A stretch of DNA of 56,728 bases from Clostridia bacterium (GCA_900754175.1 CAAEBS010000146.1:1-56728), one strand, 5' to 3'; shown: positions 10,738 to 31,396, numbered from the stretch's first letter. Notes: generated from the letters alone by a model not told the origin. Numbers and translations: made by a program.

Positions 10738-10747
10738 ATAAAAACAG

Positions 10748-12898: not shown

Positions 12899-12900
12899 TT

Positions 12901-15900
12901 TTAAACCTCCGTATCCGTCACGTCAGCCTTCCGACGATCGATGACAAAACTCTTTTTCTCTTTCCTTTCAAAATGCAGATCCGGCAGGAGCACCGCCGTC
13001 TCCCTGGTATCCTCTTCCTTTTTCCAAGCAACGACAAACCGGACGTTGGCACTGACCGGACAGTATCCTTTCTTTTCAAGCTCCTCCAATCGTGCCATAC
13101 ACGCCTTTGACAGTTTGGCTACTTTTACAGGGTACCCTCCAAGCGTAGCAAACAAAAATCCCTGTCCGAAAGAAAGAGCCGCTCCGCTATGCAACTTTAA
13201 GATCTGTTCCTTTTTTCCCTTGAAAAAGTCCAGTACAACGTCTCTGTGGGTCAACTGAAGCGACAGCTCCTGTGGCTCCGGGTATTGCGTTGTATCGACG
13301 AACCGCCCGATTCCGGCTCCTTCATATGCATCGAAAATCCCGGTGTTGCAGTGAACATACAAATTGTCCTTTGCCCTCGTCATACCGACATAAAGCTTTC
13401 GCCGCCCGGCATCGTCACAAAGCTGTTCCCGGTTCAGAAGCAACCACACGCTGTCAAACTCTCTGCCCTTGGATTTATGTATCGTGGAAACGAATACGGT
13501 TTCCCGGTCATCGGTGTAAAAGTCCTCAAACTGAGACTCTTTTATGAACTCCTCAAGATCGCTCCGGTATTTGCTGTAAGAATTGACTTTTTCAAAATCC
13601 GAAATCATGTTTCGGACGTTCTCAAGGCAGGCACTGTCGGAATACGTCTCTTCCAAAGCCTGCTTTGCCTGATTCCACAGGTCGTTGCTGATAACCGGTG
13701 TTCTGAGCCTTTTATCAATCGTATGCAAAAAGAAGCGAACCTCTGCCAGATTATACAGCCGGAATCCGTCGAGCGACTGGATCAGTTTTGCACGAATACC
13801 GTTTTTGAGAAGCAAGCCGAGCACACATAGCGCATCTTCATTGGTACCGGTCAGGACACACGCCCTTCCGCCACGATAGTTTTCCATGATCTGCCGCACG
13901 ATCGGTTCTTCCATGTTATTGCAGGTGTGTCGTACGATCTGCACAATTCCGTTTTCTCTCTGCACCGCCTCAATCGGATTCTGCTTCATGCGATTTCCAA
14001 TCCCCTCGGCGAAACGGTTGGCAAGCGCTACAATATTTGCCTTACTGCGATAATTTTCCACCAATTCATACCGGGTGGCACCGTAATCATGGATCAATTG
14101 TCGCATAAATGCGGAATCAGAACCACGGAATTCATAAATATTCTGGTCATCGTCTCCCACAGCAATCACACGCATATCGTCATTGTTACGTATCAGCGCC
14201 TGAATCAGAGAAAATTCATCTGCGTCCATATCCTGTGCCTCGTCAATTACAAGAACGCTTTTGGTAATCCTCCCCTGCTCCACCTCGCCGTTTGCAATCA
14301 TCTGCGCCGCATCGTGCACCACGTTTTCCACGCCGTCCAGACTGCCGATCTTACCCAGCAGATCAAAACAATAAGAATGAAAGGTCTTGATCTCCACAAA
14401 ATTTGCCGCATTTCCGATCAAAGCCATCAGACGCTTTTTGAATTCGGTTGCCGCCGCCCGTGAAAAAGTCACCATAAGAAGCTGTTCGTGTTTGACATCT
14501 TCCAGAAGGAGCAAAGACGCCAGTTTATGAACAAGCACTCTTGTCTTTCCGCTTCCGGGACCAGCCGCAACCACGATATACCGGGAATCCGCATCGTTTA
14601 TAATCTGCGACTGCATATCCGAAAGCTCACCGAATAACTGATGATATTTTTCCGGTGTAATGTTCCGGTTGATATCCTTTGCCCTCTCCCCTTTGAAATA
14701 CTTAGCGATAAAACGTTTGAAATCCATTCCGAAATAATCCCGGACAAACTGAAGAGCGGCGTCATAATCCCGGACCATCAGGTTTGCATATTCGCCGACG
14801 ATATGGATCTGCTGGATCTTCTGCTTATAATACTCGCTGAGCGTCCGGTAATCCTCCGCTTTATATCGGATCTTGTTATCAAGAATTAACCGTTTTACCT
14901 CCATGCCGTTGTAAAGAACCAGGAAACCGCCCTCAAGCTTCATCGAGCCGATTTTGGAAAGATACAGGAGAGCGTCCTCCACGTCTGTAAGCATCGTTCC
15001 GGAAACGTCAAAATCAGCCCCCATGTTGGGTTCATTGATGTATTTCTGCCAAAGCCCGACCAGAGAAAACTGTACCGGCGCACTTTCCTGCCCACCCTCG
15101 ACAGTCTGTGCCATTTCATAGAGTTCTTTTACCAGGAACCGACAAACATCAACTCTGCGCCGGAATTTTTCAAGCAGTCTCGGAATTTCCATTGTAGGCA
15201 CCGCCAAGGTATGCGGCGTCGGCTCGGACGTATCGTCATCCGGGTTCCTCTCCTTACTTCCTTTGGAAATGTACCCTTTGATCGTCAGATAGTACAGAAG
15301 CGTGCGGAGATTTTTAACCGAGGAAGCCGTGATTCCGGCGTTTTGCGCCGCCTCATTGAGCTCTTTCAGAGACAGGTCTGACCCCTGCTCCGATATATGG
15401 CTCAGCAGAAATTCTTCCAGCTTTATAAAGCGGTTCAGAATCTGCGCCGACCGGTTTTCGGTATCAGATCTCATAATATAAGCCGACATATCCATTGAGT
15501 CAGCAAGCAAACCATCCTGCCGCATCAGATTGACAGACGTCACAACGTCTGCTTTCGGGATTCCCAGAATATCCGCAAGATAGTCCACCCGGGACTCCGC
15601 ATCATCATTCCCCGCCTCCGCAATACTCCGACTGGAGATCAGGGACTTGATGATCCGCTTTGCGTTTTCCTTTTGCTTGTCGTCGAAAAGCGGCGACTTT
15701 TCGATTCTGAACGAAGCCTCCGCCATGTTTTTTGCAAGGATACTGGTAGCATAGACGTGCGGAACATTTTTCCCACGTTTTACATATCCGGCATTTTCAA
15801 GCGCCGCAACTGCTGTCTTGACACGGGTCTCGATCTCCTTTATCGAATCGTCCCATCCCGCCTGCCTGGCGATCTCCAAAGCAGAACAGCATACCCACGG

Positions 15901-17790
15901 CTTTTCCCTCGTCAACTCCTTCAGCGCCTTCCAGACCTGTTGGATCTCGCTGATACTGAGTTTGGTCTGATTCAGAAGCATAAAGTGCTTATCCAGGTCA
16001 TTGTCGTTGAACAACACGTAGCATTCCGCCTGCAAACTGGGATCCCGACCGGCTCTGCCCGCCTCCTGCACGTAATTTTCCAGGGAGTCGGAAATGTCGT
16101 AGTGAACAACCAGGCGGACGTCCTTTTTGTCCACTCCCATACCAAACGCAGAGGTAGCCACAATGATTTTTACCCGGTTCTGAATAAAAGCTTCCTGATT
16201 TGCAATTTTTTCGTTCGGATCCATCTTTCCGTTGAAAGGCTTTGCGGGGAAACCGTCGCTTGTCAGCTTTTCCGCAATCTGGATCGTTCTTTTCGTGAGG
16301 GAAACGTACACGATAGTCGGGCAGTTCTTTTGCTCGATAAGCGCACGGAGCGCATTGTATTTTTCGTCATCGGTTTCTTTGTACAAAACCGTATAATGGA
16401 GGTTTTCACGATCCGCCGTGGAAGTAAACAGCTCCAGTGCAACACCAAGCTTTACCCGGAAATAATCGCAGATATCGGTAATGACCTTCTGTTTTGCCGT
16501 AGCGGTAAAGCAGGACACCGGAACCGGCGTTTTCATTTGTTTTTTCTTCTGGTACTCTTTTATAAAATCGCCAATATACAGGTAATCCACACGGAAATCC
16601 TGCCCCCATGCGGAAAAGCAGTGCGCTTCATCGATGACAAAACGCACCACGTTGCGGGAAAGAAGCAGTTTCTCAATGGTCCGGGAACGCAATTGTTCCG
16701 GAGAAATGTACAAAAGAGTTGCCAGACCGCTCTCCACCCGTTCCAGCGCTTCCGACCGCTCGATCGGGCTGAGCAGACCGTTGACCGTAACGGCGTCCAC
16801 CAGTCCTTTTTCATTCAGATTGTCAACCTGATCCTTCATCAGGGACTGAAGCGGCGAGATGACGACTGTCAGCCCATGAGCGCACTCCCCTGCCATAAGA
16901 GCCGGCAACTGAAAGGTAATGGATTTTCCGCCTCCCGTCGGAAAGACCGCCAACAAGGATTTTCCGTCAACTGCTGCCTGCGCCGCACGCTCCTGCAACG
17001 GTTCTCCGTTATAGGTACGGAAATTGTCGTACCCGAAAAACTGTTTCAGCTTTTTATGAATATCAAGTCTGTCTCTGCAATAGGCACAACCGTCTTTGCA
17101 GGGGGTATGACAAAGATATCGGACGATATTATCAATTCTCGGAAAGTTTTTAGTCAGCCACGGCGGCGTTACGGAATGGTAATCCGAAGCGCTGATCAGA
17201 GCGAGCGCATACGCAAGCTCCACAGGATAATGCCGCACCATCAGCTCCACATCCGAATTTTTGCAGATCCTCCCTTTATATTCCTTGCGGATCCATCCGG
17301 CAACGTCAGAGCGTTCCGGCGTAACGCCAACGTAATCAAAAAAGCCTTTGAATTCCTCACGATCGTACAACAGGCAACTATATATCTGTTTTCTTCTGTA
17401 AGAAAGCTCGTGAAAAGTATTGACCTCATCTGCAAACAACTGCATTGCCTTTTCGGCGTCGTTCAAAGGATTGTTAAGCTGATCGGACAAAATCTTGTCG
17501 TCCTTCAAAAGGCGATGATACGGTCGGCACGGAAACAAAAGCGGAGACAGATAAAGCGTGTCAACCGGCTTGGCACGCAACGGCTTATCAAAATGCGGCG
17601 TCAGATACAAAAGGTCATGATGAACGATATTGTGCCCACAGATAAAGTCCGCATCCGAGACAAAATCATAAAATTTTGGCACAGAAAGCGCATGAAAAGA
17701 AGACCGGTCCTCCTTTATCGCCCCAAGATCCTTTATTTTTTTGTCCTCCACACCGATTTCACTATCAATGAACACGATAGACTTTGCCAT
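12901..17790 (-). CDS. Fusion protein: DEDD 3'-5' exonuclease + RecQ-type SF2 helicase + UvrD-type SF1 helicase
   Basis: ORF track gives 12901..17850. I prefer ATG 17790 (MAKSIVFIDSEIG) with AAAGGAG 7 nt upstream. Exonuclease motifs: FIDSEIG, GHNIVHHD. RecQ motifs: FPTGGGKS, VIDEAHCFSAWGQDFR, QEAGRAGRD. UvrD motifs: AAGPGSGKT, VIDEAQDM, VGDDDQNIYEFRG, ENYRS, TIHKSKGREF, VGMTRAKDNLY. Confidence 0.9.
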   Translation of the reverse strand: MAKSIVFIDSEIGVEDKKIKDLGAIKEDRSSFHALSVPKFYDFVSDADFICGHNIVHHDLLYLTPHFDKPLRAKPVDTLYLSPLLFPCRPYHRLLKDDKILSDQLNNPLNDAEKAMQLFADEVNTFHELSYRRKQIYSCLLYDREEFKGFFDYVGVTPERSDVAGWIRKEYKGRICKNSDVELMVRHYPVELAYALALISASDYHSVTPPWLTKNFPRIDNIVRYLCHTPCKDGCAYCRDRLDIHKKLKQFFGYDNFRTYNGEPLQERAAQAAVDGKSLLAVFPTGGGKSITFQLPALMAGECAHGLTVVISPLQSLMKDQVDNLNEKGLVDAVTVNGLLSPIERSEALERVESGLATLLYISPEQLRSRTIEKLLLSRNVVRFVIDEAHCFSAWGQDFRVDYLYIGDFIKEYQKKKQMKTPVPVSCFTATAKQKVITDICDYFRVKLGVALELFTSTADRENLHYTVLYKETDDEKYNALRALIEQKNCPTIVYVSLTKRTIQIAEKLTSDGFPAKPFNGKMDPNEKIANQEAFIQNRVKIIVATSAFGMGVDKKDVRLVVHYDISDSLENYVQEAGRAGRDPSLQAECYVLFNDNDLDKHFMLLNQTKLSISEIQQVWKALKELTREKPWVCCSALEIARQAGWDDSIKEIETRVKTAVAALENAGYVKRGKNVPHVYATSILAKNMAEASFRIEKSPLFDDKQKENAKRIIKSLISSRSIAEAGNDDAESRVDYLADILGIPKADVVTSVNLMRQDGLLADSMDMSAYIMRSDTENRSAQILNRFIKLEEFLLSHISEQGSDLSLKELNEAAQNAGITASSVKNLRTLLYYLTIKGYISKGSKERNPDDDTSEPTPHTLAVPTMEIPRLLEKFRRRVDVCRFLVKELYEMAQTVEGGQESAPVQFSLVGLWQKYINEPNMGADFDVSGTMLTDVEDALLYLSKIGSMKLEGGFLVLYNGMEVKRLILDNKIRYKAEDYRTLSEYYKQKIQQIHIVGEYANLMVRDYDAALQFVRDYFGMDFKRFIAKYFKGERAKDINRNITPEKYHQLFGELSDMQSQIINDADSRYIVVAAGPGSGKTRVLVHKLASLLLLEDVKHEQLLMVTFSRAAATEFKKRLMALIGNAANFVEIKTFHSYCFDLLGKIGSLDGVENVVHDAAQMIANGEVEQGRITKSVLVIDEAQDMDADEFSLIQALIRNNDDMRVIAVGDDDQNIYEFRGSDSAFMRQLIHDYGATRYELVENYRSKANIVALANRFAEGIGNRMKQNPIEAVQRENGIVQIVRHTCNNMEEPIVRQIMENYRGGRACVLTGTNEDALCVLGLLLKNGIRAKLIQSLDGFRLYNLAEVRFFLHTIDKRLRTPVISNDLWNQAKQALEETYSDSACLENVRNMISDFEKVNSYSKYRSDLEEFIKESQFEDFYTDDRETVFVSTIHKSKGREFDSVWLLLNREQLCDDAGRRKLYVGMTRAKDNLYVHCNTGIFDAYEGAGIGRFVDTTQYPEPQELSLQLTHRDVVLDFFKGKKEQILKLHSGAALSFGQGFLFATLGGYPVKVAKLSKACMARLEELEKKGYCPVSANVRFVVAWKKEEDTRETAVLLPDLHFERKEKKSFVIDRRKADVTDTEV

Positions 17791-17824
17791 GAGACACTCC
17801 TTTTGTTCAGGTAATATGGCGCTT

Positions 17825-18625
17825 TTAAAATTCAACTCTGTTAATTTCATCTGATATTTCAGTTAAGCTTTCATAACTTCCCTTTTCGTTTAAAAAAGCC
17901 TGAACTGTTTTTTTGCCCTGAAGATTAACACTCTCGGTATACATATTGTGTTTTCGGGTATAAAGCCTGCAATTATTAAAATTTACTTCCGCATTGATCA
18001 ACGGCAAAACAACCGCAAAGTGCCTTTTCAGCAAATCCATTTGCCCTTCCGTTATTCTGGGAAAATAAGTAGACACTACATTCCAGATCCCATGACTTAC
18101 AAGTAAAAAATAATCAGTATAATTCGTCACAATAAAAACATTATTCGCTCCTGTTTTGACCGCTAAGTTCAAGGAGTACAAACTATTCCTTCTATTAAAG
18201 ACCTCGGATTTCGGATATCTATGTAATCGATTTTCACGGCATGAATAAAAGTCAAAGCACTGTACATTCCCCGAAAGATCGACGGTGGGGATGATAATAC
18301 TATTGCGCATCTTATCGCAATAAGTTCCCGAGTTGGACTTAAAAACCAAGTGATACTTTTCGGCTTCTTCCTGTTGTTGAGAGGTAGAAAAAACTTTCCT
18401 CGTCAAATAAGGGTCACCATCATGAAAACCTAAACCAAGCTTTGTTATTTCCCGAAAGGAAAGATTATACTTATTCTTTAAAAATGAAAAAGCTGCCTGC
18501 GACTTCGGATTCATCTTCCATTGGGAATAATACAATTTTGCCGCCGTGCGCATCATATTCTCTCGTGATTTTAAAATTGTACTCTTTTTTTCCTCCAATG
18601 TATAGGTATCCCCTTCACCACTCAT
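17825..18625 (-). CDS. DnaG-core-like protein lacking Zn finger and catalytic TOPRIM residues (pseudo-primase)
   Basis: 266 aa. By eye it aligns to the DnaG RNAP/TOPRIM core. LGLGFHD matches IGFAP. MRNSIIIPTVDLSGNVQCF matches FRxRxMFPIxDxxGxVIGFGGR. RYPKSEVFNRRNSLYSL matches KYLNSPETxxFxKGxxLYGL. VFIVTNYTDYFLL matches VVEGYMDVVAL. The TOPRIM Glu is Thr and DGDxAG is replaced by INAEVN. RBS AAGGTGGA. Confidence 0.6.
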   Translation of the reverse strand: MSGEGDTYTLEEKKSTILKSRENMMRTAAKLYYSQWKMNPKSQAAFSFLKNKYNLSFREITKLGLGFHDGDPYLTRKVFSTSQQQEEAEKYHLVFKSNSGTYCDKMRNSIIIPTVDLSGNVQCFDFYSCRENRLHRYPKSEVFNRRNSLYSLNLAVKTGANNVFIVTNYTDYFLLVSHGIWNVVSTYFPRITEGQMDLLKRHFAVVLPLINAEVNFNNCRLYTRKHNMYTESVNLQGKKTVQAFLNEKGSYESLTEISDEINRVEF

Positions 18626-18662
18626 ATGCCGTTTTCCACCTTATGTAAAATCTTATACTTAC

Positions 18663-18691
18663 AGTATATCATAAAATCTGACTATTTTCAA
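18663..18691 (-). promoter_or_regulatory. Promoter of the pseudo-primase/helicase operon
   Basis: Minus strand: TTGAAA (18691..18686), 17 nt, TATACT (18668..18663), preceded by TGa (extended -10). About 30 nt upstream of the RBS. Confidence 0.5.
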
Positions 18692-18752
18692 TCCTTTTTT
18701 TACCAAAAGTGTGAAATTCCGCTTGGAACAAAATATTTTTCATTTTCTTTTT

Positions 18753-18790
18753 TAACCCGGACAGCCGTTGTCCGGGTTAGCTTTTAAAAT
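18753..18790 (+). promoter_or_regulatory. Operator/promoter module, copy 1 (upstream of the seven-gene operon)
   Basis: 11-bp perfect palindrome taacccggaca / tgtccgggtta containing GGACAGCCGTTGTCC, then 11 nt, then TAAAAT (18785..18790). ATG 18817 lies 27 nt further on. Same core and spacing as the copies at 26243 and 32976. Confidence 0.5.
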
Positions 18791-18816
18791 GGTGGTGGAA
18801 TGGAGGTGAGCGGAAG

Positions 18817-19182
18817 ATGGGAACTGCCGAAAGGCGAGCGGAGATCATGAAAATACTGTGCCGGCGCAGACGGGAAAGCATCCGGAATCTGGCGGCTGAA
18901 TTCGGCGTTTCCTCACGGACGATACAGCGTGACGTTGATATTCTGAGCCGCTCCGAACCGATCTTTACCATGCCGGGCAGGTACGGCGGCGTCTGCGTGG
19001 TGGAGGGCTACTCCATGGACCGGATGTACATGACCACGGCGGAAGTTGCGGTACTGCAAAAGCTGTATGCGGCGGCTGAAAGCTCTGCCGGGTTACTTAC
19101 GCTCCCCGAAAAAGATCTGCTCGGTTCCCTGATTGCGCAATACTCCAAGCCAACAAGAAAAAATGAAAGGAATTTATCATGA
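18817..19182 (+). CDS. Small HTH_11/DeoR-like (YafY N-terminal type) transcriptional regulator
   Basis: 121 aa, MGTAERRAEIMKILCRRRRESIRNLAAEFGVSSRTIQRDVDILS. Its stop overlaps the next ATG (ATGA at 19179..19182). Paralogue at 25182..25523. Confidence 0.8.
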   Translation: MGTAERRAEIMKILCRRRRESIRNLAAEFGVSSRTIQRDVDILSRSEPIFTMPGRYGGVCVVEGYSMDRMYMTTAEVAVLQKLYAAAESSAGLLTLPEKDLLGSLIAQYSKPTRKNERNLS

Positions 19183-20264
19183 ACGAAAACGAAAAACAGC
19201 TTTTCAAAGCACTTTGCAAATTCAAAGAACCCACATTCGACGATTCCCTGCTCGCCTACGCAACTCCGTGCGTGCTGGGGCATCTGTTCTTCAACCGGAT
19301 GCAGGGCGTTGCCTACGGCACGCTGAAGCGGCGGGGAGCGCTCGGGCGTGTAAACCGGGAATTCCGGAACTCTCTCGGTGCGGCGTTTGAGCAGAACCGG
19401 CAGAAAAACGAAAGCTTTCTGCAATGTGTCGGAACGCTCTCGGAGCTTCTTTCCGACGGCGGCGTCCGGGCGGCTATGCTGAAAGGCGCATTCCTGTGTG
19501 CGCACTATCCGGAGGGCTACCGGACCTCCAACGACATCGACCTGCTGGTGCTTCCCGAGGACGTGACGGCGGTCGGCACGCTGCTTTACGATGCGGGATT
19601 CCGCCAGGGGAGCGTCCGGGAGGGCAAATTCATCCCCGCCACCCGTGTCCAGATCATCACCTCCAAAATGATGCGGGGCGAAACCGTCCCGTACATCCGG
19701 GAAGTCGGTCTGCCTCAGATGAAATATCTTGAGGTGGATATCAATTTCTCTCTGGACTACAAAAACGGCGACGACCGTATTCTGCACGACCTTCTGGCAC
19801 GCACCACGACACGGGAGGAGGACGGGCTTCCCATTCCGATGCCGGAATCCTGCGACTTTTTCCTCCACCTTTGCGCCCACCTCTACAAGGAGGCGACCAC
19901 GCTTCCCTGGATCGAAATGCGCCGGGACATGACGCTGTACAAATACGCCGACCTCTATCTTCTGCTCCACGAGCTGGACGACACCGGCATTGCCGAGATC
20001 TTTGACCGTGCCCGGGCGCTTGGACTTGACAAAATCTGCGCTTATGCGATTCTGGAAACGATAGAGTTGTTCGATATGAAAAACGATACTGCCTGCCAAC
20101 TGGCAAACCAAGCGCTGGCAGACGACCCGGATTTCCGCCTGCGGGTCACGTCCACCAAGGACAAAAAGATACTGATCTACCGGACCGCAAGCGCTACCGA
20201 GCGCTTTTTCATGGACGACCGGACAAAGGATCTCAGGGAGGTGAAAAGCGATGAAAAGGCTTAA
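19179..20264 (+). CDS. Nucleotidyltransferase family protein (NTP_transf_5 / PF14907-like)
   Basis: 361 aa. AAMLKGAFLCAHYPEGYRTSNDIDLLVLPEDV matches the LKG...R..DIDLLV hallmark I associate with PF14907. RBS GAAAGGAA. Confidence 0.72.
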   Translation: MNENEKQLFKALCKFKEPTFDDSLLAYATPCVLGHLFFNRMQGVAYGTLKRRGALGRVNREFRNSLGAAFEQNRQKNESFLQCVGTLSELLSDGGVRAAMLKGAFLCAHYPEGYRTSNDIDLLVLPEDVTAVGTLLYDAGFRQGSVREGKFIPATRVQIITSKMMRGETVPYIREVGLPQMKYLEVDINFSLDYKNGDDRILHDLLARTTTREEDGLPIPMPESCDFFLHLCAHLYKEATTLPWIEMRRDMTLYKYADLYLLLHELDDTGIAEIFDRARALGLDKICAYAILETIELFDMKNDTACQLANQALADDPDFRLRVTSTKDKKILIYRTASATERFFMDDRTKDLREVKSDEKA

Positions 20265-20886
20265 TATGCGGGAAAACCGGACCCCCGGGCGGCTGATCAC
20301 CTTTTGCGGACTGGATGGTTGCGGCAAGACGACCATGATCCGGCGGCTGTTTGACGAGCTGGAGAGCACGCACAGCATTTTCCTGACCAAGCAGCCGACC
20401 AACGCCGTGCGGAAATCCGAGATCTTCCGGAACTACATGGACTGCCCCGATCACAACGCCTTCGACTACCGCAGTCTTTCCCTGCTTGCCGCAAGCGACC
20501 GACTGCAACACGTGAACAAGGTGATTGAGCCGGCGATGCAACACGGCGGCATCGTACTCAGCGACCGGTATTTTTACTCCTGCCTTGCCAATCTGCGGGC
20601 AAGAGGCTTTGAAAAGGACGACTGGATCTACGAAATCGCAGGCTCGGTCATCAAGCCGGATCTTGCCTTTTTCTTTGACGTGCCGGTGGAGGTGGCGGTG
20701 GACCGGGTCCGCAGTCGCCCGGAGGAAAAGAACCGGTACATCGACATTGACCTGCAATACCGGCTCCGCAAGGAGTATGTGGACATCTGCTTTGCAAACG
20801 GCGGCATCCTCATCTCCACCATGGAGCCGGAGGACGACTGTTACGCCCTGGTGAAAAAAGCGGTAAAGGAGGTACTGAAAAAATGA
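20251..20886 (+). CDS. Thymidylate-kinase-like P-loop nucleotide kinase
   Basis: 211 aa. LITFCGLDGCGKTT (Tmk P-loop G-x-DG-x-GKT/S-T), FLTKQPT, SDRYFYSCLA (Tmk DRY motif), and an Arg-rich LID-like VDRVRSRPEEKNRY. RBS GGGAGGTG. Overlaps the previous gene by 14 nt. Confidence 0.78.
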   Translation: MKRLNMRENRTPGRLITFCGLDGCGKTTMIRRLFDELESTHSIFLTKQPTNAVRKSEIFRNYMDCPDHNAFDYRSLSLLAASDRLQHVNKVIEPAMQHGGIVLSDRYFYSCLANLRARGFEKDDWIYEIAGSVIKPDLAFFFDVPVEVAVDRVRSRPEEKNRYIDIDLQYRLRKEYVDICFANGGILISTMEPEDDCYALVKKAVKEVLKK

Positions 20887-21149
20887 CGGTATTAGAGAAA
20901 ATCATTGCGATCCTGACAGAGCTGAGCGACGAAAAGGTCATCACGCCGGAAAGCCGGCTTACCGAAGATCTGGCGCTGGACAGCATCCGGATGGTAACGC
21001 TTCTGATCGAGCTGGAGGAAAGCTTCGGCATCGTCCTTGCCGAGTCGGACATGAACCCGTTCGACCTGATCACGGTAAGCGACGTTATAACGCTTGTGAA
21101 AAAATATGAAAAGGAGCCGGAAAGCAACCATGAAAAAGAACAGAATTGA
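20883..21149 (+). CDS. Acyl/peptidyl carrier protein
   Basis: 88 aa. LTEDLALDSIRMVTLLIELEESFG contains the D-S-(L/I) phosphopantetheine attachment motif. ATGA overlap with the upstream stop. RBS AAGGAGG. Confidence 0.85.
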   Translation: MTVLEKIIAILTELSDEKVITPESRLTEDLALDSIRMVTLLIELEESFGIVLAESDMNPFDLITVSDVITLVKKYEKEPESNHEKEQN

Positions 21150-22134
21150 GCTTCCCCTCATCGAACCGGTGTACAGCACCTATCACAATCAGGGAGCGGG
21201 CAGTGCGATCCTCGTCCACAACCCCTCCATCCGGAACTGGTATCTGAATCAGGTATTGATCCTCACCTGCAACCGGAAATTTCTGAAAGGCTTTACCACG
21301 CCCGAGGTCAGCATTGTGGAGGGCACCTGGAATACCAATCCTTATCTGGAAAAGAAGTGGTTCGGATTGCAGTTTCTCCGGGGGCACGTCCACTACGTGA
21401 TCCGGAATCTGCTGGAGGCGGGCTATTACGTCACCTTCAACGGAATCGACGACTACTACGTAGAGGGAAAAAGCTGGTACCGACAGCGGCATTTTCCCCA
21501 CGACGGCTGTATCTGCGGATACGACCCGGAGGACGACACCTACTGCATTTACGCCTACGATCAGAACTGGATCTACCGGAAATTCAAAACGCCGAAAAAA
21601 TGCTGGGAGGCGGGGCGGAAAGCCATGTTCAAGGTGGGGCGCTACGGCAACATCTGCGGTCTGAAGCCCAAGGGCGACAAAGTCGTTTTTTCGCCGGAAA
21701 CCGCCCGGAAAAAGCTTGCCGAATACCTGAACTCCGATTTTGAAAAATATCCGGAGGACGGTGAGGGACCGGTGTACGGAATCGTGGTACACGATTACAT
21801 TGCGAAATACGTCGGAAAGCTTTACGACGGTTCGATTCCCTACGAAAAAATGGATCGCCGGGTGTTCCGGCTGATCTGGGAGCACAAAAAGGTCATGCTG
21901 GAGCGGATCCGCCGGATTGAGGAGGCGCTCTCCCTCGGCGGCGACGTCGGCGACCGGTACGAGGCAGTGGTAAAGGACGCCGATATGCTCCGGATGCTTT
22001 ACGCCTCTCACCACATGAAACGCCGGGACTCGGTCCTGCCGGTCATTCAGAAAAAACTGCTCTCGCTCAAAGCGTGCGAGCAGGCGCTTCTGACCGAGCT
22101 TCTGGCAAACTCGGAGGGAGGTGGCGTGGAATGA
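21130..22134 (+). CDS. Hypothetical protein (possible BtrH/C39-like papain-fold acyl-carrier-dependent transferase)
   Basis: 334 aa from ATG 21130 (AAAGGAG 14 nt upstream; alternative ATG at 21106). No family recognised with confidence. RQRHFPHDGCICGYDPEDDTYCIYAYD resembles the H-x-GYD-x-D segment of BtrH_N/C39-like folds. Its stop overlaps the next ATG. Confidence 0.6.
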   Translation: MKKNRIELPLIEPVYSTYHNQGAGSAILVHNPSIRNWYLNQVLILTCNRKFLKGFTTPEVSIVEGTWNTNPYLEKKWFGLQFLRGHVHYVIRNLLEAGYYVTFNGIDDYYVEGKSWYRQRHFPHDGCICGYDPEDDTYCIYAYDQNWIYRKFKTPKKCWEAGRKAMFKVGRYGNICGLKPKGDKVVFSPETARKKLAEYLNSDFEKYPEDGEGPVYGIVVHDYIAKYVGKLYDGSIPYEKMDRRVFRLIWEHKKVMLERIRRIEEALSLGGDVGDRYEAVVKDADMLRMLYASHHMKRRDSVLPVIQKKLLSLKACEQALLTELLANSEGGGVE

Positions 22135-23510
22135 AGCTCTGGAACTTTATCCGGGAAGCAATGATGTCGCACCCGACGCAGAAGATCCGGGAGGAGCGTG
22201 CGGAAATGAGCTTTGAAGAAGTAGCGGTCTTTGCCCGGGAGTTTTCGGAAAGGCTCCGGGGATTCCGTTGCTGTGCCATTCTCTGCTCCTCCGAAATGGC
22301 GGCGGCAATGGCGCTCCTCTCCTGCTTTGCGGCAGAGGTAACGGCACTGCCCCTCTCCATGCGGTACGGACAAGCCCACTGCCGCAAGATTCTTGACGCC
22401 GTAAGCCCCGACGCTATCATCAGCGACAACGGCGGAGAGCTGGCGGTATACCGGCTGGATCCCGGCAGCTATTCTCCACCCGATGTACATCCGGCGCTCA
22501 TCATGTGCACCTCCGGCACCACCGGAAAGCCCAAGGGCGCCATGCTCAGTGAAAGCAATATCCTTGCCAACGTGACCGATATTGCCGGATATTTTGCGCT
22601 CGGGGAAAGCGATACCATTCTGATCGCCCGCCCGCTCTACCACTGTGCGGTGCTGACCGGCGAATTTCTGACCGCCCTGGTCCGGGGCGCCGGGATCCGC
22701 TTTTACTCGGGGAACTTCAACCCACCGAAAATGCCGGAGCTGATCCGAAACTATGAGATCACGGCTTTCTGCGGAACGCCTACCCTGCTGTCGATGATGG
22801 CAAGATTCAGCCGTGGCACGCCGCCCCCGACCCTGAAGCATATCGTGATCAGCGGCGAATGTATGGGCGCCGACACCGGCATTGCCATTGCCGACGCCTT
22901 TCCGCAAAGCCGGATCTACCACGTTTACGGGCTGACCGAGGCTTGCCCACGGGTCAGCTATCTGCCTCCCGAAGCCTTCCGGCAATACCCCGATTGCGTC
23001 GGGATTCCCCTGCGCTCGGTCTCGGTTCGCCTGCTTACCCCGGACGGCGCTCTCTGCCAGCCCGGCGAGGAAGGCGTCCTGTGGGTCAGGGGGGACAACG
23101 TGATGCTCGGCTACTACCGGGATCCCGGAAGGACCGCCGAAATTCTGCGGGACGGCTGGCTCTGCACCGGCGACCTTGCGGTGAAGAACGACGCCGGCTA
23201 TCTGAAGATCAAGGGGCGCAACGACGATCTCATCATCAAATCGGGCATGAACGTCTACCCCGCCGAAATCGAGGCGGCAATGAAACAGGACGCAAGAGTC
23301 CGGGAAGTGCTGGCATACAAAGTCGAAGGCCGCTTCGGCGTGCAGATCGGCATGAAGCTGGCAGGCGACTTTTCCTCGGTGGAAGAGGTAAAAAAGCTCT
23401 GCGCACAGCTCCTGCCCCCCTTTCAGATCCCGGCGGTCATCACGCTGGTGGACGAACTGCCGAAAAACGGCTCCGGCAAAATCATACGGAGGGAACGCCA
23501 TGACGCTTGA
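22131..23510 (+). CDS. Adenylate-forming enzyme (AMP-dependent synthetase/ligase, DltA-sized)
   Basis: 459 aa from ATG 22131 (RBS GGAGGGAGG). IMCTSGTTGKPKGAMLS, YGLTEA, GDLAVKNDAGYLKIKGRNDDLIIKSGMNVYPAEIE, LPKNGSGKI. Confidence 0.9.
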   Translation: MKLWNFIREAMMSHPTQKIREERAEMSFEEVAVFAREFSERLRGFRCCAILCSSEMAAAMALLSCFAAEVTALPLSMRYGQAHCRKILDAVSPDAIISDNGGELAVYRLDPGSYSPPDVHPALIMCTSGTTGKPKGAMLSESNILANVTDIAGYFALGESDTILIARPLYHCAVLTGEFLTALVRGAGIRFYSGNFNPPKMPELIRNYEITAFCGTPTLLSMMARFSRGTPPPTLKHIVISGECMGADTGIAIADAFPQSRIYHVYGLTEACPRVSYLPPEAFRQYPDCVGIPLRSVSVRLLTPDGALCQPGEEGVLWVRGDNVMLGYYRDPGRTAEILRDGWLCTGDLAVKNDAGYLKIKGRNDDLIIKSGMNVYPAEIEAAMKQDARVREVLAYKVEGRFGVQIGMKLAGDFSSVEEVKKLCAQLLPPFQIPAVITLVDELPKNGSGKIIRRERHDA

Positions 23511-24060
23511 AACAGAAAAGAAAGCACTGCTGACCCGGCAGGAAGCCGACGTCCTTCTGCATCATTTTGCAGGCGGGATCGCCTCTGTCGTCCAGACCAA
23601 CTATTATTTCGACAGCGAGGACCGGTCGATGGATCAAAGAGACATCACCTGCCGGGTCCGCATGAAAGACGGAAAAGCCGCCGCTACCATGAAAATCCAC
23701 CACGTGGGAAACGGACAAAGCGTGGAGGTCCCCTTTCCGGTGACCGACGGGCTGAACCGGAACGGCTTTACCGACATGGGACTGCGGCTCTGCGGTTTTC
23801 TGACCACCTGCCGCACCGTCCTTGTCCGGACCGATACCTTTGAGCTGGTGCTGGACCGGAACCGCTACCTCGGCTGTGAGGACTACGAGCTGGAGCTGGA
23901 ATATTCGGCGCTCGGAAAAGAATCTGCCGGACTGTACTGGCAGTACGTCCTCCGCCTGCTTCAGAATCATACGGCGGACCGGCGCCCGGTGCAGACCGAC
24001 CGGGTGCCGGGAAAATCCCGCCGGTTCTTCCGCCGGCTGAGCGAATACGACCGCCGGTAG
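23500..24060 (+). CDS. CYTH-domain protein (triphosphate tunnel metalloenzyme / class IV cyclase-like)
   Basis: 186 aa. N-terminal LETEKKALL is the ExExK motif. Also QTNYYFD, ITCRVRM, ATMKI, and VLDRNRYLGCEDYELELEY (C-terminal acidic ExExE). Overlaps the ligase gene by 11 nt. RBS GGAGGGAA. Confidence 0.75.
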   Translation: MTLETEKKALLTRQEADVLLHHFAGGIASVVQTNYYFDSEDRSMDQRDITCRVRMKDGKAAATMKIHHVGNGQSVEVPFPVTDGLNRNGFTDMGLRLCGFLTTCRTVLVRTDTFELVLDRNRYLGCEDYELELEYSALGKESAGLYWQYVLRLLQNHTADRRPVQTDRVPGKSRRFFRRLSEYDRR

Positions 24061-24236: not shown

Positions 24237-24854
24237 ATGCGGACCATGAATCAGGAAAAAACAGAAAGACTTTCCGAATTTCTCAAGCAATATGCAAGAG
24301 ATAACAACGGCACTTCTCCGGGTCTTTCGGAAATCATGGAATATATGGGAATGTCCAAGGCAACGGCATACCGCTATATTCTCGAACTGGAAAGGCAGGG
24401 GCTGGTGTCGTACAGCGGCAAAAACACCCTGGAGACCGATCTGCAACGCAAAATGAACTGCGGCTTCCGCAAGGTGCCGCTGGTCGGTCAGATCGTCTGC
24501 GGCACGCCCGACGAGCAGGAGGAATTCATCAGCGAATATCTTGCCATTCCGGAAGAGTGGGTGGACGGCGAATGCTTTCTGCTCCGGGCATACGGCGATT
24601 CCATGATCGACATCGGGATCGAAAAGGACGACCTTATTCTGGTAAAGCGGGCGGAAACGGCGGAAAGCGGCGACGTCGTCGTGGCGCTGACCGAGAACGG
24701 CAACACGCTGAAGCGGCTGTTCTGGGAGGGCAACAAGCCGAGACTGCACGCCGAAAACAAAACATACAAGCCAAAGGATGTGGACATATACCCCGAATCC
24801 CTGACGATTCAGGGGATCGCCCTGAAAGTAATCAAAAACATCCGGCAAAAATAA
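24237..24854 (+). CDS. lexA: LexA-family repressor (winged HTH + S24 self-cleaving peptidase)
   Basis: 205 aa. N-terminal LexA-type wHTH (GLSEIMEYMGMSKATAYRYILELERQGLV). Hinge VPLVGQIVCGTP. Ser/Lys dyad context AYGDSMIDIGI ... NTLKRL. Confidence 0.75.
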   Translation: MRTMNQEKTERLSEFLKQYARDNNGTSPGLSEIMEYMGMSKATAYRYILELERQGLVSYSGKNTLETDLQRKMNCGFRKVPLVGQIVCGTPDEQEEFISEYLAIPEEWVDGECFLLRAYGDSMIDIGIEKDDLILVKRAETAESGDVVVALTENGNTLKRLFWEGNKPRLHAENKTYKPKDVDIYPESLTIQGIALKVIKNIRQK

Positions 24855-24868
24855 AAGGAGGGATCCGC

Positions 24869-25075
24869 ATGATAAAATACCCGTGTCCGATCTGCAACAG
24901 GCGGGCGTGCGACTCAAACAAGTATCTTTCTCTTGCCAAATTATCCGAAAACAATGAGTCCAGAGCCGACGTGGTCATCAAATGTCAGAACTGCAAAAAC
25001 ACCCTGGCGGTAAAGGTTCTGGCAAACGCCGTCGTCTTTGAACAGACAAGCCCGCAGGAGGGCGCAAATTCCTGA
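24869..25075 (+). CDS. Small Zn-ribbon protein (CxxC...CxxC), hypothetical
   Basis: 68 aa, MIKYPCPICNRRACDSNKYLSLAKLSENNESRADVVIKCQNCKNTLAVKV... RBS AAAGGAGGG 6 nt upstream. 14 nt after the lexA-like stop. Lies inside a longer ORF-track frame (24557..25075). Confidence 0.5.
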   Translation: MIKYPCPICNRRACDSNKYLSLAKLSENNESRADVVIKCQNCKNTLAVKVLANAVVFEQTSPQEGANS

Positions 25076-25114: not shown

Positions 25115-25162
25115 GAGCATGACAAGTAGCCTTACGCTATTTGTCATGCTCTTTTATTTTTT
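25115..25162 (+). terminator. Rho-independent terminator after the LexA-like/Zn-ribbon genes
   Basis: 11-bp stem gagcatgacaa (25115..25125) / ttgtcatgctc (25141..25151), followed by TTTTATTTTTT. Confidence 0.6.
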
Positions 25163-25181: not shown

Positions 25182-25523
25182 ATGGGAACCGCCGAGCGCA
25201 GGCTTGAAATCCTGAAATATCTGTGTAGAACCAGACATGCCACCATGGCTCAGCTTGCCAAAGAATTCGGCGTTTCCCAGAGGACCATTCAGCGGGACGT
25301 TTACGAGATCGAAGCGACCTTTCACGCACCGATTGTCGTAAAATGCGGCAAATACGACGGCGGCGTATATCTGATCGGCGATTACAGTTTTGACCGGATA
25401 TATATGTGCGAGGAGGAGCTTCTCCTGCTCCGCAAAACGCAAAAGCTCCTTGCGGGGCGCCTGACCGAAAAGGAAAACGCCCTGCTCTCCCGGATGATCC
25501 AAAATTATTCCAGAAGCTCCTGA
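25182..25523 (+). CDS. Small HTH_11/DeoR-like regulator, paralogue of 18817..19182
   Basis: 113 aa from ATG 25182 (RBS AAAGGAGGA). MGTAERRLEILKYLCRTRHATMAQLAKEFGVSQRTIQRDVYEIE... has the same N-terminus and architecture as the 18817 gene. Confidence 0.8.
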   Translation: MGTAERRLEILKYLCRTRHATMAQLAKEFGVSQRTIQRDVYEIEATFHAPIVVKCGKYDGGVYLIGDYSFDRIYMCEEELLLLRKTQKLLAGRLTEKENALLSRMIQNYSRSS

Positions 25524-26224: not shown

Positions 26225-26274
26225 AAAAATATTTTCCAACCACGACAGCAGTTCTCCGGTTTACGCTTTATAAT
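26225..26274 (+). promoter_or_regulatory. Operator/promoter module, copy 2 (upstream of the DUF1906/Big_2 genes)
   Basis: AAAAATATTTTCCAAccaCGACAGCAGTTCTCC, then 11 nt, then TATAAT (26269..26274). 42 of 51 positions match copy 3 in my hand alignment. Confidence 0.5.
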
Positions 26275-26338
26275 AAGCTTGCAGCTGCAAAATAACACAC
26301 AACAAACAAAAATTTTTCAAAAAAAGGAGAAAAAAACT

Positions 26339-27148
26339 ATGGCTTGTAGAAAAGCTTACAAAACCAAAATCATGAAAACGGAGGTCGCCGCAAGCGTGCA
26401 GACTTCCGCCACAGTGCCGGAGGTGGCAAAAAGCGTAGACCGCCTCCTCTTCGGAGCGGACTCCGAAATTCCGGCAAACGACCTGCTTCAGAACAACATC
26501 GAGGAATTCGAGTGGGTCGTCCGCAATAAGATCTACCCCAACTTCTACGGCAGATACCTGACGGGAGAAAACGGGCTTACCAAAAAGGAGATCCGTTTCC
26601 TGCACAACAAGGGCTGCAAGATCGCCGCTATCTATGTCGATGAGGGCGAAAAACAGACCAAAGAGGCGGGCACGGTCCTCGCCAAGAAAATGGATATCCG
26701 GGCGTTTGAGCTTGGTATCCCCGAGGGAACCGCCATCTTCCTGGAGATCGGCGACAACGAGCCGGTCAACCGTGACTTTATGAAAGGTTACGCAAACGCC
26801 CTCCTCGCCGCCGGTTATACCCCCGGCTTCAAGGTCAACACCGACGCAAAATACCCCTTTGACCGGGAATTCAGCCGTGGAATGCAGTCCGATAAGGACG
26901 TGTTCGCAAAATGCCTGATCTGGGCAGTGACGCCCACCGTCAAGGAGTATAACGGCATCACCACCACGCACCTCATTCACCCCGACAACTGGGCACCCTT
27001 CGCCCCCTCCGGTATCACCCGAAACGAAATTGCCATCTGGCAGTACGGCAGAGCCTGCCACCCCATTGAGGACGACACCGGCAAAATGGTTACCTTCAAC
27101 CTGGACCTTGTCCGGAATGAACAGGTAATTATTGACAAAATGTTCTGA
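26339..27148 (+). CDS. DUF1906 / Rv2525c-like glycoside-hydrolase-fold protein (lysin-like), no signal peptide
   Basis: 269 aa from ATG 26339 (RBS AAGGAGA). GRYLTGENGLTKKEIRFLHNKGCKIAAIYV and a C-terminal IAIWQYG...FNLDLV resemble the DUF1906/GH25-like TIM-barrel family. Confidence 0.65.
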   Translation: MACRKAYKTKIMKTEVAASVQTSATVPEVAKSVDRLLFGADSEIPANDLLQNNIEEFEWVVRNKIYPNFYGRYLTGENGLTKKEIRFLHNKGCKIAAIYVDEGEKQTKEAGTVLAKKMDIRAFELGIPEGTAIFLEIGDNEPVNRDFMKGYANALLAAGYTPGFKVNTDAKYPFDREFSRGMQSDKDVFAKCLIWAVTPTVKEYNGITTTHLIHPDNWAPFAPSGITRNEIAIWQYGRACHPIEDDTGKMVTFNLDLVRNEQVIIDKMF

Positions 27149-31048: not shown

Positions 31049-31082
31049 AAGCACCTCCATACGGCAAACTTAAATCACCTAC

Positions 31083-31111
31083 ATTATACCATATTATAGC
31101 AATTTTGTAAA
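31083..31111 (-). promoter_or_regulatory. Promoter of the 29372..31048 lipoprotein gene
   Basis: Minus strand: TTTACA (31111..31106), 17 nt, TATAAT (31088..31083), preceded by TGg. The block tacattataccatat..aattttgtaaa is repeated at 32923..32954. Confidence 0.55.
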
Positions 31112-31174
31112 TAGCGAATCTGACGGTTTCGGAACAAAATTCCAAAAATTTACAAAACATGTCAGATATGATAA

Positions 31175-31339
31175 AACAACTGGCAAAGCGATTGGGCAGG
31201 AGCAGGCAGAAAATTCGATATGTGGCAGTATACAGAGACAAAACATATTCCGCCGATTTCCGGAAATGTGGACTGCGATGTTGCGTACAAAAATTATCCG
31301 CTGATCATCAAATCATTGCATCTGAATAACTTTAAATAA
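31175..31339 (+). pseudogene. C-terminal remnant of a GH25-type muramidase (lysozyme) gene
   Basis: Hand translation of this frame gives NNWQSDWAGAGRKFDMWQYTETKHIPPISGNVDCDVAYKNYPLIIKSLHLNNFK*. The MWQYT...ISGNVD..AYKNYP stretch resembles GH25 C-termini. The frame is closed by TGA/TAA at 31169..31174 with no upstream catalytic part. Confidence 0.45.
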
Positions 31340-31350
31340 TTTTCAAGCAT

Positions 31351-31389
31351 AAAAAAGCCCATAGGTTTTGATTTTCAAAGCCTATGGGT
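31351..31389 (-). terminator. Rho-independent terminator of the 31397..32335 gene
   Basis: Stem gcccatagg (31357..31365) / cctatgggt (31381..31389). On the minus strand it is followed by TTTTTT (31356..31351). It begins 8 nt after the stop. Confidence 0.6.
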
Positions 31390-31396
31390 GATTTTG

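Follow-up and report, generated by a model that had tools for sequence, protein, structure and literature searches.

What does an operon produce if one half of it resembles a small device for acyl transfer and the other half consists of nucleotide enzymes, and which programme of the cell does the product serve? The question is raised by seven plus-strand genes at 18817-24060 of a 56,728-nucleotide stretch of DNA from a Clostridia bacterium (GCA_900754175.1, CAAEBS010000146.1:1-56728). The whole stretch is referred to as the window, and coordinates are those of the window unless another locus is named. A preliminary description, made from the sequence alone, had seen in these genes an adenylate-forming ligase, a free-standing carrier protein and a 334-residue protein of no recognised kind (here called X), next to a nucleotidyltransferase, a thymidylate-kinase-like kinase and a CYTH enzyme. 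The answer at which we arrive is that the product is most likely a small acylated metabolite of phospho- or nucleotide type, and that the operon makes it as part of a regulon for toxin release by lysis, a reading to which we assign a probability of roughly 45%. Its parts concerning protein fold, synteny and the regulon are much more certain, and its chemistry is much less certain. The operon, also called the cassette below, is composed as follows.

18817-19182, plus strand: small HTH_11 regulator (DeoR-like), 121 amino acids (aa); Pfam HTH_11 at 5e-8
19179-20264, plus strand: NTP_transf_5 nucleotidyltransferase (NTase) of Pol-beta fold, 361 aa; PF14907 at 1e-32
20251-20886, plus strand: P-loop kinase of the thymidylate kinase family (Tmk-like), 211 aa; Pfam Thymidylate_kin at 2e-25
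20883-21149, plus strand: free-standing acyl carrier protein (ACP), 88 aa; PP-binding at 1e-6, with the serine motif LALDSI
21130-22134, plus strand: X, putative papain-like carrier-protein-dependent transacylase, 334 aa; from AlphaFold2 and Foldseek
22131-23510, plus strand: adenylate-forming ligase of the acyl/aryl-CoA-ligase type, 459 aa; AMP-binding at 5e-54
23500-24060, plus strand: CYTH (triphosphate-tunnel) enzyme, 186 aa; CYTH at 5e-14

Reading of the open reading frames (ORFs) in the window reproduces exactly the overlaps that had been described: the HTH/NTase, kinase/ACP and X/ligase junctions are ATGA overlaps, and those of NTase/kinase, ACP/X and ligase/CYTH measure 14, 20 and 11 nt, respectively. 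The same overlaps are present in homologous loci, and gene order is shared by 31 of 36 genomes, which bears out the proposal of a single coupled unit. The length of X is counted from the ATG at 21130; its homologues have 333-336 aa and the N-terminus MKK.IELP. All six domains named beforehand were recovered by Pfam profile search. Family scans with Pfam and the other collections agree with the earlier statement that transporter and condensation/ketosynthase families are without a match in any of the seven proteins, and none of the seven products is a membrane protein. Judged from their motifs, all six enzymes look catalytically competent.

The acyl-transfer half of the argument depends on X. 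This protein has no match in Pfam (E <= 0.01), NCBIfam, PADLOC or PHROGs, including the existing Pfam families BtrH_N and DUF4872, and no PDB sequence match by phmmer. An AlphaFold2 model computed from an alignment of 38 homologues (predicted local distance difference test score, pLDDT, 86; predicted template modelling score, pTM, 0.83) has strands up to about residue 180 and helices at 189-328, that is, the bipartite composition of papain-like alpha/beta and helical domains. A Foldseek search of the PDB with this model yields eleven matches below 1e-3, all of which are AziU2/U3 (8gs1, 7wuw) or CcbD (7yn1, 7yn2, 9dkr, 9dks). The best are AziU2/U3 8gs1 at 1e-8 and CcbD 7yn2/9dkr at 1e-7, with template modelling (TM) scores of 0.5-0.62 and a probability of 1.0, and the matching CcbD structures include the complex with the peptidyl carrier protein (PCP) domain of CcbZ. 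Phytochelatin-synthase-like papain folds and calpains come after these. Papain-like stand-alone ligases or transacylases were defined in 2026 with CtaG and its structural homologues AsbE, BtrH and MllDE, and AziU2/U3 and CcbD are the sole solved structures of comparable fold (PMC12865890).

The residues C47, H124 and D144 form a candidate Cys-His-Asp triad, invariant in 38 close homologues of X; in a six-sequence alignment with Bacillus and Paenibacillus relatives of 21-23% identity, H124 is invariant and five of the six sequences retain C47 and D144. X is flanked by the ACP and the ligase with overlapping frames, an arrangement kept in 31 of 36 loci, and remote homologues of X on Bacillus plasmids adjoin AMP-binding or PP-binding genes in cluster-like contexts. 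Since X combines the fold of the class, conserved candidate triad residues and the partner genes, the idea of a ligase, a carrier and a transferase is well supported; the ligase-carrier-transferase logic first suggested from gene content is backed by the matches of the model to CcbD and AziU2/U3 (E 1e-7 to 1e-8). By its model, X is a papain-like, carrier-protein-dependent transacylase of the CtaG/CcbD/AsbE/BtrH class and, within that known fold class, a new sequence family. Another 334-aa protein, from a B. thuringiensis cluster considered below, was tried as a hidden homologue of X and rejected (hhalign probability 1.8%). X-like genes also occur alone. In two loci (L032, 9956-10990; L038, 4325-5353) a lone gene, 53% and 37% identical, respectively, and with intact triad residues, lies directly behind an RHS gene, with its own promoter of the class B defined below and no ACP or ligase beside it; these genes suggest a direct functional tie of X-type enzymes to toxins.

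Concerning the acid that would be transferred, the translated ligase contains the motifs TSGTTGKPKG, PLYH, YGLTE and PKNGSGK, and the closest PDB sequences are feruloyl- and fatty-acyl-CoA synthetases, MenE, and oxalyl- and malonyl-CoA ligases. Among ANL enzymes PLYH is the motif of acyl- and aryl-CoA ligases, and FDxS that of amino-acid adenylation domains. Because the ligase has PLYH in place of FDxS, its substrate is probably an acid other than an alpha-amino acid. Hence, of the acylated or aminoacylated nucleotide that had been proposed as the product, the acylated form is retained as the favoured reading and the aminoacylated form is unlikely. The ligase presumably loads the ACP, for which the best NCBIfam models are acyl_carrier and AsbD, all under their cut-offs.

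The three nucleotide enzymes stand as they had been named, with Pfam matches and conserved catalytic residues. The NTase scores 114.2 bits against PF14907 (gathering threshold 31.2), and its G113, S117, D119, D121 and D187, i.e. the G..S.D.D pattern and the third carboxylate, are invariant in 36 homologues. Its AlphaFold2 model has a pLDDT of 90, and Foldseek recovers the Pol-beta core only, with MenT1, ANT(2'')-Ia, LnuA and TM1012 as weak structural neighbours. The kinase lies above the NCBI dTMP-kinase threshold (TIGR00041, 92.1 bits against a cut-off of 83.25) and retains the P-loop GLDGCGKTT, the SDR and DRY motifs and an arginine-rich LID, RVRSR. Compared with Tmk of T. thermophilus (5x7j), it has LLAASDR for LLFSADR (Phe to Ala) and SCLANL for SSLAYQG (AYQ to ANL), and the altered positions are invariant in 28 cassette orthologues. 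We take them, from Tmk structures, to be the thymine-stacking Phe and the sugar- and base-reading Tyr and Gln of AYQ. From the alignment, the base pocket is remodelled and the phosphate-binding residues are kept; as the base-pocket residues have changed, the acceptor would be a phosphomonoester other than dTMP. The CYTH protein reaches 53.1 bits in Pfam (threshold 23.2), its nearest PDB entry is BH2851 (2gfg, YjbK-like), and the ExExK (LETEKK), RxR (TCRVR) and ELExE (ELELEY) motifs are conserved in 27 orthologues despite low overall identity.

The distribution of the cassette was obtained from a scan of one genome per species, which gave 36 loci (L numbers in this text denote loci). Uncultured gut or rumen Oscillospirales account for 34 of them (among these Faecousia, Acutalibacteraceae, Christensenellaceae-labelled bins and 'Ca. 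Egerieisoma'), and the remaining two are distant Paenibacillus homologues at 22% identity. A large protein collection holds 969 homologues of X, the best 120 of which show 63-99% identity and come from metagenome bins of Clostridia, Oscillospiraceae and Ruminococcaceae. With every window protein as a tblastn query, the order HTH, NTase, kinase, ACP, X, ligase, CYTH was found in 31 of the 36 loci and broken only at contig ends; co-conservation of the genes, on which the preliminary description had made its proposal depend, is thus observed. The kinase is the most conserved cassette gene (61-82% identity across loci); the ligase has 46-70%, the NTase 48-68% and X 43-72%. In most loci the HTH_11 gene, at 36-69%, precedes NTP_transf_5. 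Conservation is lowest in CYTH (32-49%), which is missing despite a continuing contig in six loci and in L043. Since the seven genes are co-conserved across loci, they constitute a genuine operon under strong purifying selection. The locus L043 (5146-10467) carries a variant cassette of NTase, kinase, X', ACP, X and ligase, with two X paralogues around the ACP and without CYTH, preceded by an XhlA-like gene, an Amidase_2 gene and a 97-aa ORF, and followed by Rv2525c-like, Big_2 and RHS genes.

What places this operon in a cellular programme is a promoter element. The preliminary description had noted an operator shared with holin operons and paralogous HTH genes, and both are found. The copies of the element in the window are the following, with scores from a position weight matrix (PWM) trained on cassette sites of other genomes.

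18754-18778, plus strand: dyad promoter/operator element AACCCGGACA-N5-TGTCCGGGTT, class A, 31.4 bits
18785-18790 and 18802-18806, plus strand: -10-like hexamer TAAAAT and ribosome-binding site GGAGG, after the class A dyad
26238-26262, 26269-26274 and 26281-26288, plus strand: class B dyad (25.6 bits), TATAAT and GCAGCTGC, promoter of the Rv2525c-like/Big_2 operon
32971-32995 and 33002-33007, plus strand: third dyad copy (21.7 bits) and TATAAT, upstream of a lysis-type operon

The dyad is about 25 bp long, with the consensus AACC(C/A)TGACAGTAGTTGTCAGGGTT, and upstream of the cassette lies about 7 nt before the -10-like hexamer and about 40 nt before the start codon; it is found at the same place in all 22 other loci inspected, and overall in nearly all genomes with a readable upstream flank. 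Conservation is strongest in the right half and the centre, and the left arm varies without compensation. Given this uncompensated variation, and the position of the cassette dyad between the upstream terminator and the -10 box, the dyad is read as a promoter element bound by protein and not as an RNA hairpin. A riboswitch or leader RNA upstream of the operon was rejected on the same grounds: the dyad is promoter DNA, and Rfam gave nothing at gathering thresholds over the whole window, with chance-level matches alone at 18500-18900. In the 56.7-kb window the PWM detects exactly three sites, one of them upstream of the lysis-type operon, and the next best scores 9.6 bits; in the other loci it detects about 61 extra sites, compared with 0-6 in shuffles. 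A pattern search likewise gives three window sites, a count reached in 0 of 100 shuffles. Besides the cassette, the dyad heads operons of the glycoside-hydrolase-like (GH)/Big_2/RHS, f7-RHS and XhlA-holin kinds, f7 being a protein family described below. In the class B copies the dyad is followed by a near-consensus TATAAT and mostly also by a conserved GCAGCTG(C); class B sites were counted by PWM, as a strict regular expression under-counts them.

The HTH_11 protein of the operon (18817-19182) is the candidate binder of the dyad element. A second HTH_11 gene, at 25182-25523, is 46% identical to it. In the toxin and lysis promoters the palindromic GCAGCTGC (often GCAGCTGCAAAA) stands 5-6 nt past the -10 box, as at 26281-26288 of the window and in L005, L006, L008-L013, L015 and others, and the cassette promoter is without it. 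Either a further operator or a conserved 5' end of the transcript, setting apart two promoter classes of one regulon, could account for the palindrome.

The members of the regulon that lie downstream of the cassette in the window are given here.

26339-27148, plus strand: Rv2525c-like GH gene; PF08924 at 2e-9
~27177-29324, plus strand: protein with five Big_2 domains, overlapping the GH gene; Big_2 at 8e-76
33052-33342, plus strand: XhlA-like gene, 96 aa; weak XhlA match (0.0019; 18.8 bits against a cut-off of 34.7)
33354-33641, plus strand: Hol44-family holin, assigned by sequence family, Phage_holin_5_2 at 8e-26 being that of the L031 family-9 orthologue
33660-34730, plus strand: membrane-anchored metallophosphoesterase; Metallophos at 2.6e-9

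Clustering of all ORFs of the loci yields four kinds of recurrent neighbours: giant Big_2 and/or DUF6531-RHS proteins, Rv2525c-like GH proteins, f7, and modules of XhlA-like protein, Hol44 holin and amidase or metallophosphoesterase. Wherever the contig extends beyond the cassette, a toxin or lysis gene adjoins it in 30 of 31 loci. In many loci homologous GH and Big_2 pairs come after the cassette, frequently with DUF6531-RHS added, and lysis modules with an amidase (Amidase_2) flank it in others. A DNA-only scan of metagenomes with the class B promoter pattern found 27 contigs; the first downstream ORF is GH in 17, XhlA in 2, f7 in 1 and RHS in 1, that is, 21 of 23 readable copies, and the ligase/CYTH end of the cassette lies immediately upstream in 12 contigs. 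An N-terminal hydrophobic segment was seen in none of 27 BIG/RHS, 12 GH, 12 f7 and 6 amidase proteins, and the holins have one. By analogy with lysis-dependent release elsewhere, this describes a regulon of toxins lacking signal peptides that would be released with the help of holin and hydrolase modules, and the cassette operon is a near-constant member of it. This link to Big_2/RHS polymorphic toxins and lysis modules is the decisive context that the earlier reading did not have. The f7 protein (e.g. L021, 9327-10457; also L005, L009, L016 and L037) is conserved, has 376 aa and shows neither a Pfam match nor a signal peptide; its gene, under a class B promoter, invariably precedes an RHS gene at short distance, and the protein is a candidate RHS partner or chaperone.

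How the six enzymes may work together can be outlined as follows, where we infer all chemical steps, the identity of acid and acceptor, the binding of the HTH protein and its sign, and the role of the product. The ligase would activate a non-amino carboxylic acid and place it as a thioester on the phosphopantetheinylated ACP, from which X would take the acyl group onto Cys47 and hand it to a free acceptor, more probably at an amine than at a hydroxyl. Either this acceptor or its acylated form would bear a phosphomonoester for the Tmk-like kinase to extend, and the NTP_transf_5 enzyme would join this intermediate to a nucleotide, or use it as one. CYTH could hydrolyse the triphosphate or pyrophosphate by-product or trim the product, a helpful and dispensable task. 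HTH_11 would bind the 25-bp dyad heading its own operon, in autoregulation, as well as those of the toxin, hydrolase and lysis operons. Because the dyad is common to cassette, toxin and lysis operons, the metabolite would be made in cells committed to toxin production and lysis; and as the cassette itself contains no exporter, exit by lysis is to be expected, the metabolite being a co-released antagonist or a kin signal. A more specific version is that the cassette makes a new acyl-amide nucleotide (or phospho-metabolite) that is integral to Gram-positive lysis-dependent release of RHS toxins and acts as signal or co-toxin; this we put forward tentatively and with more doubt than confidence. 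As a signal, it could be an intracellular or kin cue that commits a subpopulation to toxins and lysis through the HTH_11/dyad circuit; as a co-toxin, it could be a small molecule delivered by the same lysis event.

Support for a small-molecule product comes from unrelated loci that contain NTP_transf_5. The B. thuringiensis plasmid pST7-2 (L047) has NTP_transf_5, AMP-binding, decarboxylase, ACP and acyl-CoA-dehydrogenase-like genes, about 3.5 kb further an adjacent CYTH/NTP_transf_5 pair, and ABC transporters next to the cluster. A plasmid of Bacillus sp. BS98 carries an NTase and a haloacid-dehalogenase-type (HAD) hydrolase beside adenylate-forming, PP-binding, decarboxylase, phosphotransferase, NUDIX, radical-SAM and aminotransferase genes, and the faecal scaffold MT835751 carries HAD, CYTH, an ABC-2 exporter, NTP_transf_5 and a ligase resembling aminoacyl-tRNA synthetases. 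Two of these three loci have exporters, as would be expected of a small-molecule product. They look like metabolite clusters with exporters and, by analogy, support the small-molecule reading and the partnership of NTase and CYTH. The pST7-2 cluster (record 24996-47437) also includes a methyltransferase, a luciferase-like monooxygenase, an S-adenosylmethionine (SAM) synthetase, short-chain dehydrogenases/reductases, a phosphoesterase and myo-inositol-1-phosphate synthase.

It should be noted that several observations weigh against this reading. All carriers of the cassette are metagenome-assembled genomes, and CYTH is absent from about one fifth of the cassettes. Genes for precursor supply, self-resistance or a phosphopantetheinyl transferase (PPTase) are not present in the operon. 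A T-run follows the dyad in some copies, where a role as terminator is possible. The structural neighbours of the NTase include enzymes acting on macromolecules, e.g. MenT1 on tRNA, these matches being weak (TM on query ~0.35), and the lone X-like genes of L032 and L038 imply that X could act on or with a toxin. Finally, the enzymes are far more conserved than the adjoining toxins (RHS ~25% identity), a pattern no less compatible with a fixed housekeeping or regulatory function than with a weapon; with enzymes so highly conserved beside fast-evolving toxins, the product would have a fixed role and not one in an arms race.

In a rival reading, which we regard as unlikely, the cassette would attach acyl and/or nucleotidyl groups to a protein, a nucleic acid or a wall precursor as cells go into the toxin-lysis programme. 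X would then modify a lysine in the Big_2/RHS toxin or in a release factor, in the way that HlyC uses acyl-ACP to acylate RTX toxins, the NTase would act like MenT-type enzymes in nucleotidylating a tRNA or protein, and kinase and CYTH would supply or clear nucleotides. Such a role would suit the lone X-like genes, triad intact, directly behind RHS genes under class B promoters, the tRNA-modifying toxin MenT1 among the best structural neighbours of the NTase, and the sole functional hint for PF14907, PsmN, which acts on a phosphorylated peptide; there is also no exporter or resistance gene, and strong sequence conservation fits a fixed macromolecular partner. However, the adjoining toxins vary widely (RHS, Big_2-only or none) and the cassette stays constant, a nucleoside-monophosphate-kinase-like enzyme with an altered base pocket is hard to square with protein acylation, exporters and metabolite-type tailoring enzymes accompany the relatives of NTase, CYTH and ligase elsewhere, and the characterised members of the fold class of X all acylate small-molecule or carrier-bound amines (PMC12865890). 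That the nucleotide enzymes serve the carrier itself is improbable: here NTase, kinase and CYTH would make a nucleotide-derived prosthetic group and attach it to the ACP, like CitG/CitX and MdcB/MdcG, and the product would be a simple acyl amide. The ACP carries the usual PP-binding signature, LALDSI, and its top-scoring models are those of ordinary ACPs, neither the sequence nor the fold of the NTase matches CitX/MdcG, the kinase is of the Tmk and not the CoaE family, and CYTH is dispensable. The absence of a PPTase from the operon would agree with such priming, but small clusters usually borrow the PPTase of the host. NTP_transf_5 does occur repeatedly beside ACP and adenylate-forming genes in unrelated Bacillus loci, and the triphosphorylated dephospho-CoA derivative that CitX/MdcG-type transferases use would suit a triphosphate-tunnel enzyme.

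A mere coincidence, in which an ordinary metabolic operon for dTMP kinase and fatty-acid activation happens to lie in a toxin-rich variable region, is scarcely credible. The kinase does pass the NCBI dTMP-kinase cut-off and the ligase resembles fatty-acid and aryl CoA ligases; against this stand the shared promoter element, the recovery of the cassette by a reciprocal DNA-motif search, linkage in 30 of 31 loci, the translational coupling to a dedicated regulator and the altered base pocket of the kinase. Very improbable, too, is an anti-phage or abortive-infection system, in which a toxic nucleotide or signal would be made on infection or DNA damage and the adjacent holin and lysin would kill the cell. 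This takes up the stress- or phage-responsive framing of the preliminary description, which had been based partly on a LexA-like gene next to the operon. The gene is present in the window, together with the following elements.

24237-24854, plus strand: LexA-like S24 repressor; Peptidase_S24 at 6e-26, TIGR00498 at 111.1 bits against a cut-off of 110.95
24869-25075, plus strand: 68-aa zinc-ribbon protein (CPxC...CxxC), directly after the LexA-like gene
25115-25151, plus strand: strong terminator hairpin closing the zinc-ribbon gene, immediately before the ribosome-binding site of the second HTH_11 paralogue (25182-25523, plus strand)

Defence would be in keeping with this neighbour, with the lysis genes in the same regulon, with weak PADLOC 2.0 matches of the kinase (PDC-M51B at 2e-11, VakA at 5e-10; generic HTH matches also occur) and with helicase genes having DpdF/GajB-like domains upstream in the window. 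However, the LexA block accompanies the cassette in two genomes only, that of the window and the one to which L001-L003, all copies of a single contig, belong, so the LexA/zinc-ribbon/second-HTH block is an accessory insert outside the conserved unit. The Cheo box CGAAC-N4-GTTCG gives 20 near-matches where chance would give 35, none of them at the three promoters; with no such enrichment and no conserved LexA-like neighbour, SOS control was rejected. The NTase, ACP, X, ligase and CYTH are without match in PADLOC 2.0, and membership of a known defence system was rejected on that scan. Searches of 50,697 phage records and of IMG/VR viral contigs found no X and gave no link to phages or defence islands, on which a prophage or phage origin was rejected; the NTase matches a single entry of the phage database, an unverified faecal scaffold whose gene content differs. 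Defence systems are seldom so strongly conserved, and the genes that do stay with the cassette encode Big_2/RHS polymorphic toxins, which serve antagonism between cells. With LexA not conserved, X absent from phages, PADLOC matches weak and the upstream helicases not conserved neighbours, the defence framing is left without evidence.

The upstream genes just mentioned lie on the minus strand at 11069-18625 and encode a 1649-aa RecQ-like and UvrD-like fusion helicase with strong PADLOC matches of the DpdF/GajB type, a second RecQ (RQC and HRDC domains) and a truncated DnaG-like protein; a 381-aa RNase III with two double-stranded-RNA-binding domains (9742-10887) stands just upstream of them. 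The helicase, primase and RNase III genes were rejected as partners, as they are not conserved beside the cassette, and may constitute a defence or repair module of their own. In the LexA-like protein, Cys-Gly replaces the Ala-Gly of the LexA cleavage site. A gene for a 2205-aa RHS protein with a basic N-terminus (524-7141, minus strand) has a sigma-70-type promoter of its own (TTGACA-17-TATAAT near 7540-7510) and a long leader; it was rejected as a regulon member and, as it is without the dyad element, apparently lies outside the regulon. Between the Big_2 and holin operons, at 29372-32335 on the minus strand, are two BspA-type leucine-rich-repeat (LRR_5) proteins, and similar LRR_5 genes recur near the cassette in L006, L015, L034 and L043. 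The G+C content rises from ~0.41 upstream of the operon to 0.55-0.60 over the cassette and falls to ~0.50 downstream (window 18001-24000), and with these steps the locus looks compositionally mosaic.

Returning to the acylated metabolite, its novelty has to be placed with care. Every protein of the cassette comes from a known superfamily, and the acyl-transfer half is a variant of papain-like thiotemplated ligase systems. In the literature searched and in PADLOC, the combination of NTP_transf_5, a re-pocketed Tmk paralogue and CYTH is undescribed, and so is membership in an RHS-toxin/lysis regulon with a shared promoter element; literature searches for PF14907 and the gene combination returned nothing describing this operon, in accordance with the first statement that it could not be placed in any described defence system or pathway. 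The carriers, Oscillospirales, are common uncultured gut and rumen bacteria, and for X alone there are 969 homologue clusters. One promoter element joins toxin genes, holin-lysin modules and a strongly conserved six-enzyme cassette, which offers a testable picture of how giant RHS/Big_2 toxins may be deployed without secretion signals, and the dyad together with the small HTH_11 regulators is a handle for finding the whole regulon in metagenomes. The cassette also provides a first functional context for NTP_transf_5, the YjbK-like CYTH and a Tmk paralogue with a changed base pocket, and X extends the papain-like thiotemplated ligases, a class recognised only recently, by a new sequence family. 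Should the product indeed be an acylated nucleotide, its chemistry would be new and might matter for competition or signalling in the microbiome, and it would be made by a new partnership of NTP_transf_5, Tmk-like kinase, CYTH and papain-like transacylase.

Among known systems, the pathways of CtaG (closthioamide), CcbD/LmbD (lincosamides), AsbE (petrobactin) and BtrH (butirosin) resemble the acyl half in conserved Cys, His and Asp residues of the transferase, in X a candidate triad, and in encoding a carrier and its loading ligase alongside; AziU2/U3 has the fold in common with X. X differs from this class in its 10-13% identity and in a candidate Cys about 35 residues further from the N-terminus, and the pathways have no counterpart of the Tmk-like kinase, NTP_transf_5, CYTH or the regulon. 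Petrobactin assembly by AsbC-AsbD-AsbE, in which an aryl acid is passed over a carrier to a polyamine amide, shares the three-protein logic and a ligase of non-amino-acid type; the ACP matches the AsbD model, and the better matches of the ligase include the neighbouring PRK07638 acyl-CoA-synthetase model. These scores, however, stay far under their family cut-offs (AsbD 39.9 against 100), neither the AsbA/AsbB siderophore synthetases of the NIS type nor AsbF occur in the operon or its conserved flanks, and a siderophore uptake context is lacking. The Dlt system (DltA-DltC-DltB-DltD) likewise combines a free-standing ligase with a small carrier protein. In contrast to it, the cassette has no MBOAT protein DltB, no DltD and no amino-acid-type ligase motif, and DltC models score 31.7 and 20.8 against cut-offs of 68 and 52.

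As to the nucleotide half, the Bacillus clusters of pST7-2 and BS98 likewise combine NTP_transf_5 with an adenylate-forming enzyme and an ACP, but they are without a homologue of X or a Tmk-like kinase and contain many tailoring genes and exporters; being uncharacterised, they serve as analogy only. PsmN is probably of the same family as the NTP_transf_5 nucleotidyltransferase-like proteins. In the pseudomycoidin lasso-peptide cluster it adds a group onto the phosphate that a kinase has installed on the peptide (PMC9266682). Its substrate is a ribosomal peptide and the kinase is HPr-kinase-like, whereas the cassette has neither a precursor peptide nor a lasso cyclase. For the regulon, the nearest parallels are the release of RHS-containing Tc toxins by a lysis cassette (type 10 secretion-like) in Yersinia entomophaga and the holin-dependent release of large clostridial toxins (PMC10847048, PMC12485765). 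The bacteria considered here differ from these in being Gram-positive commensals with unrelated regulators and promoter elements, and no such enzyme cassette has been reported there. What the putative release regulon has in common with type 10 secretion-like release is a giant RHS-type cargo without signal peptides, placed together with holin and peptidoglycan-hydrolase genes under common control.

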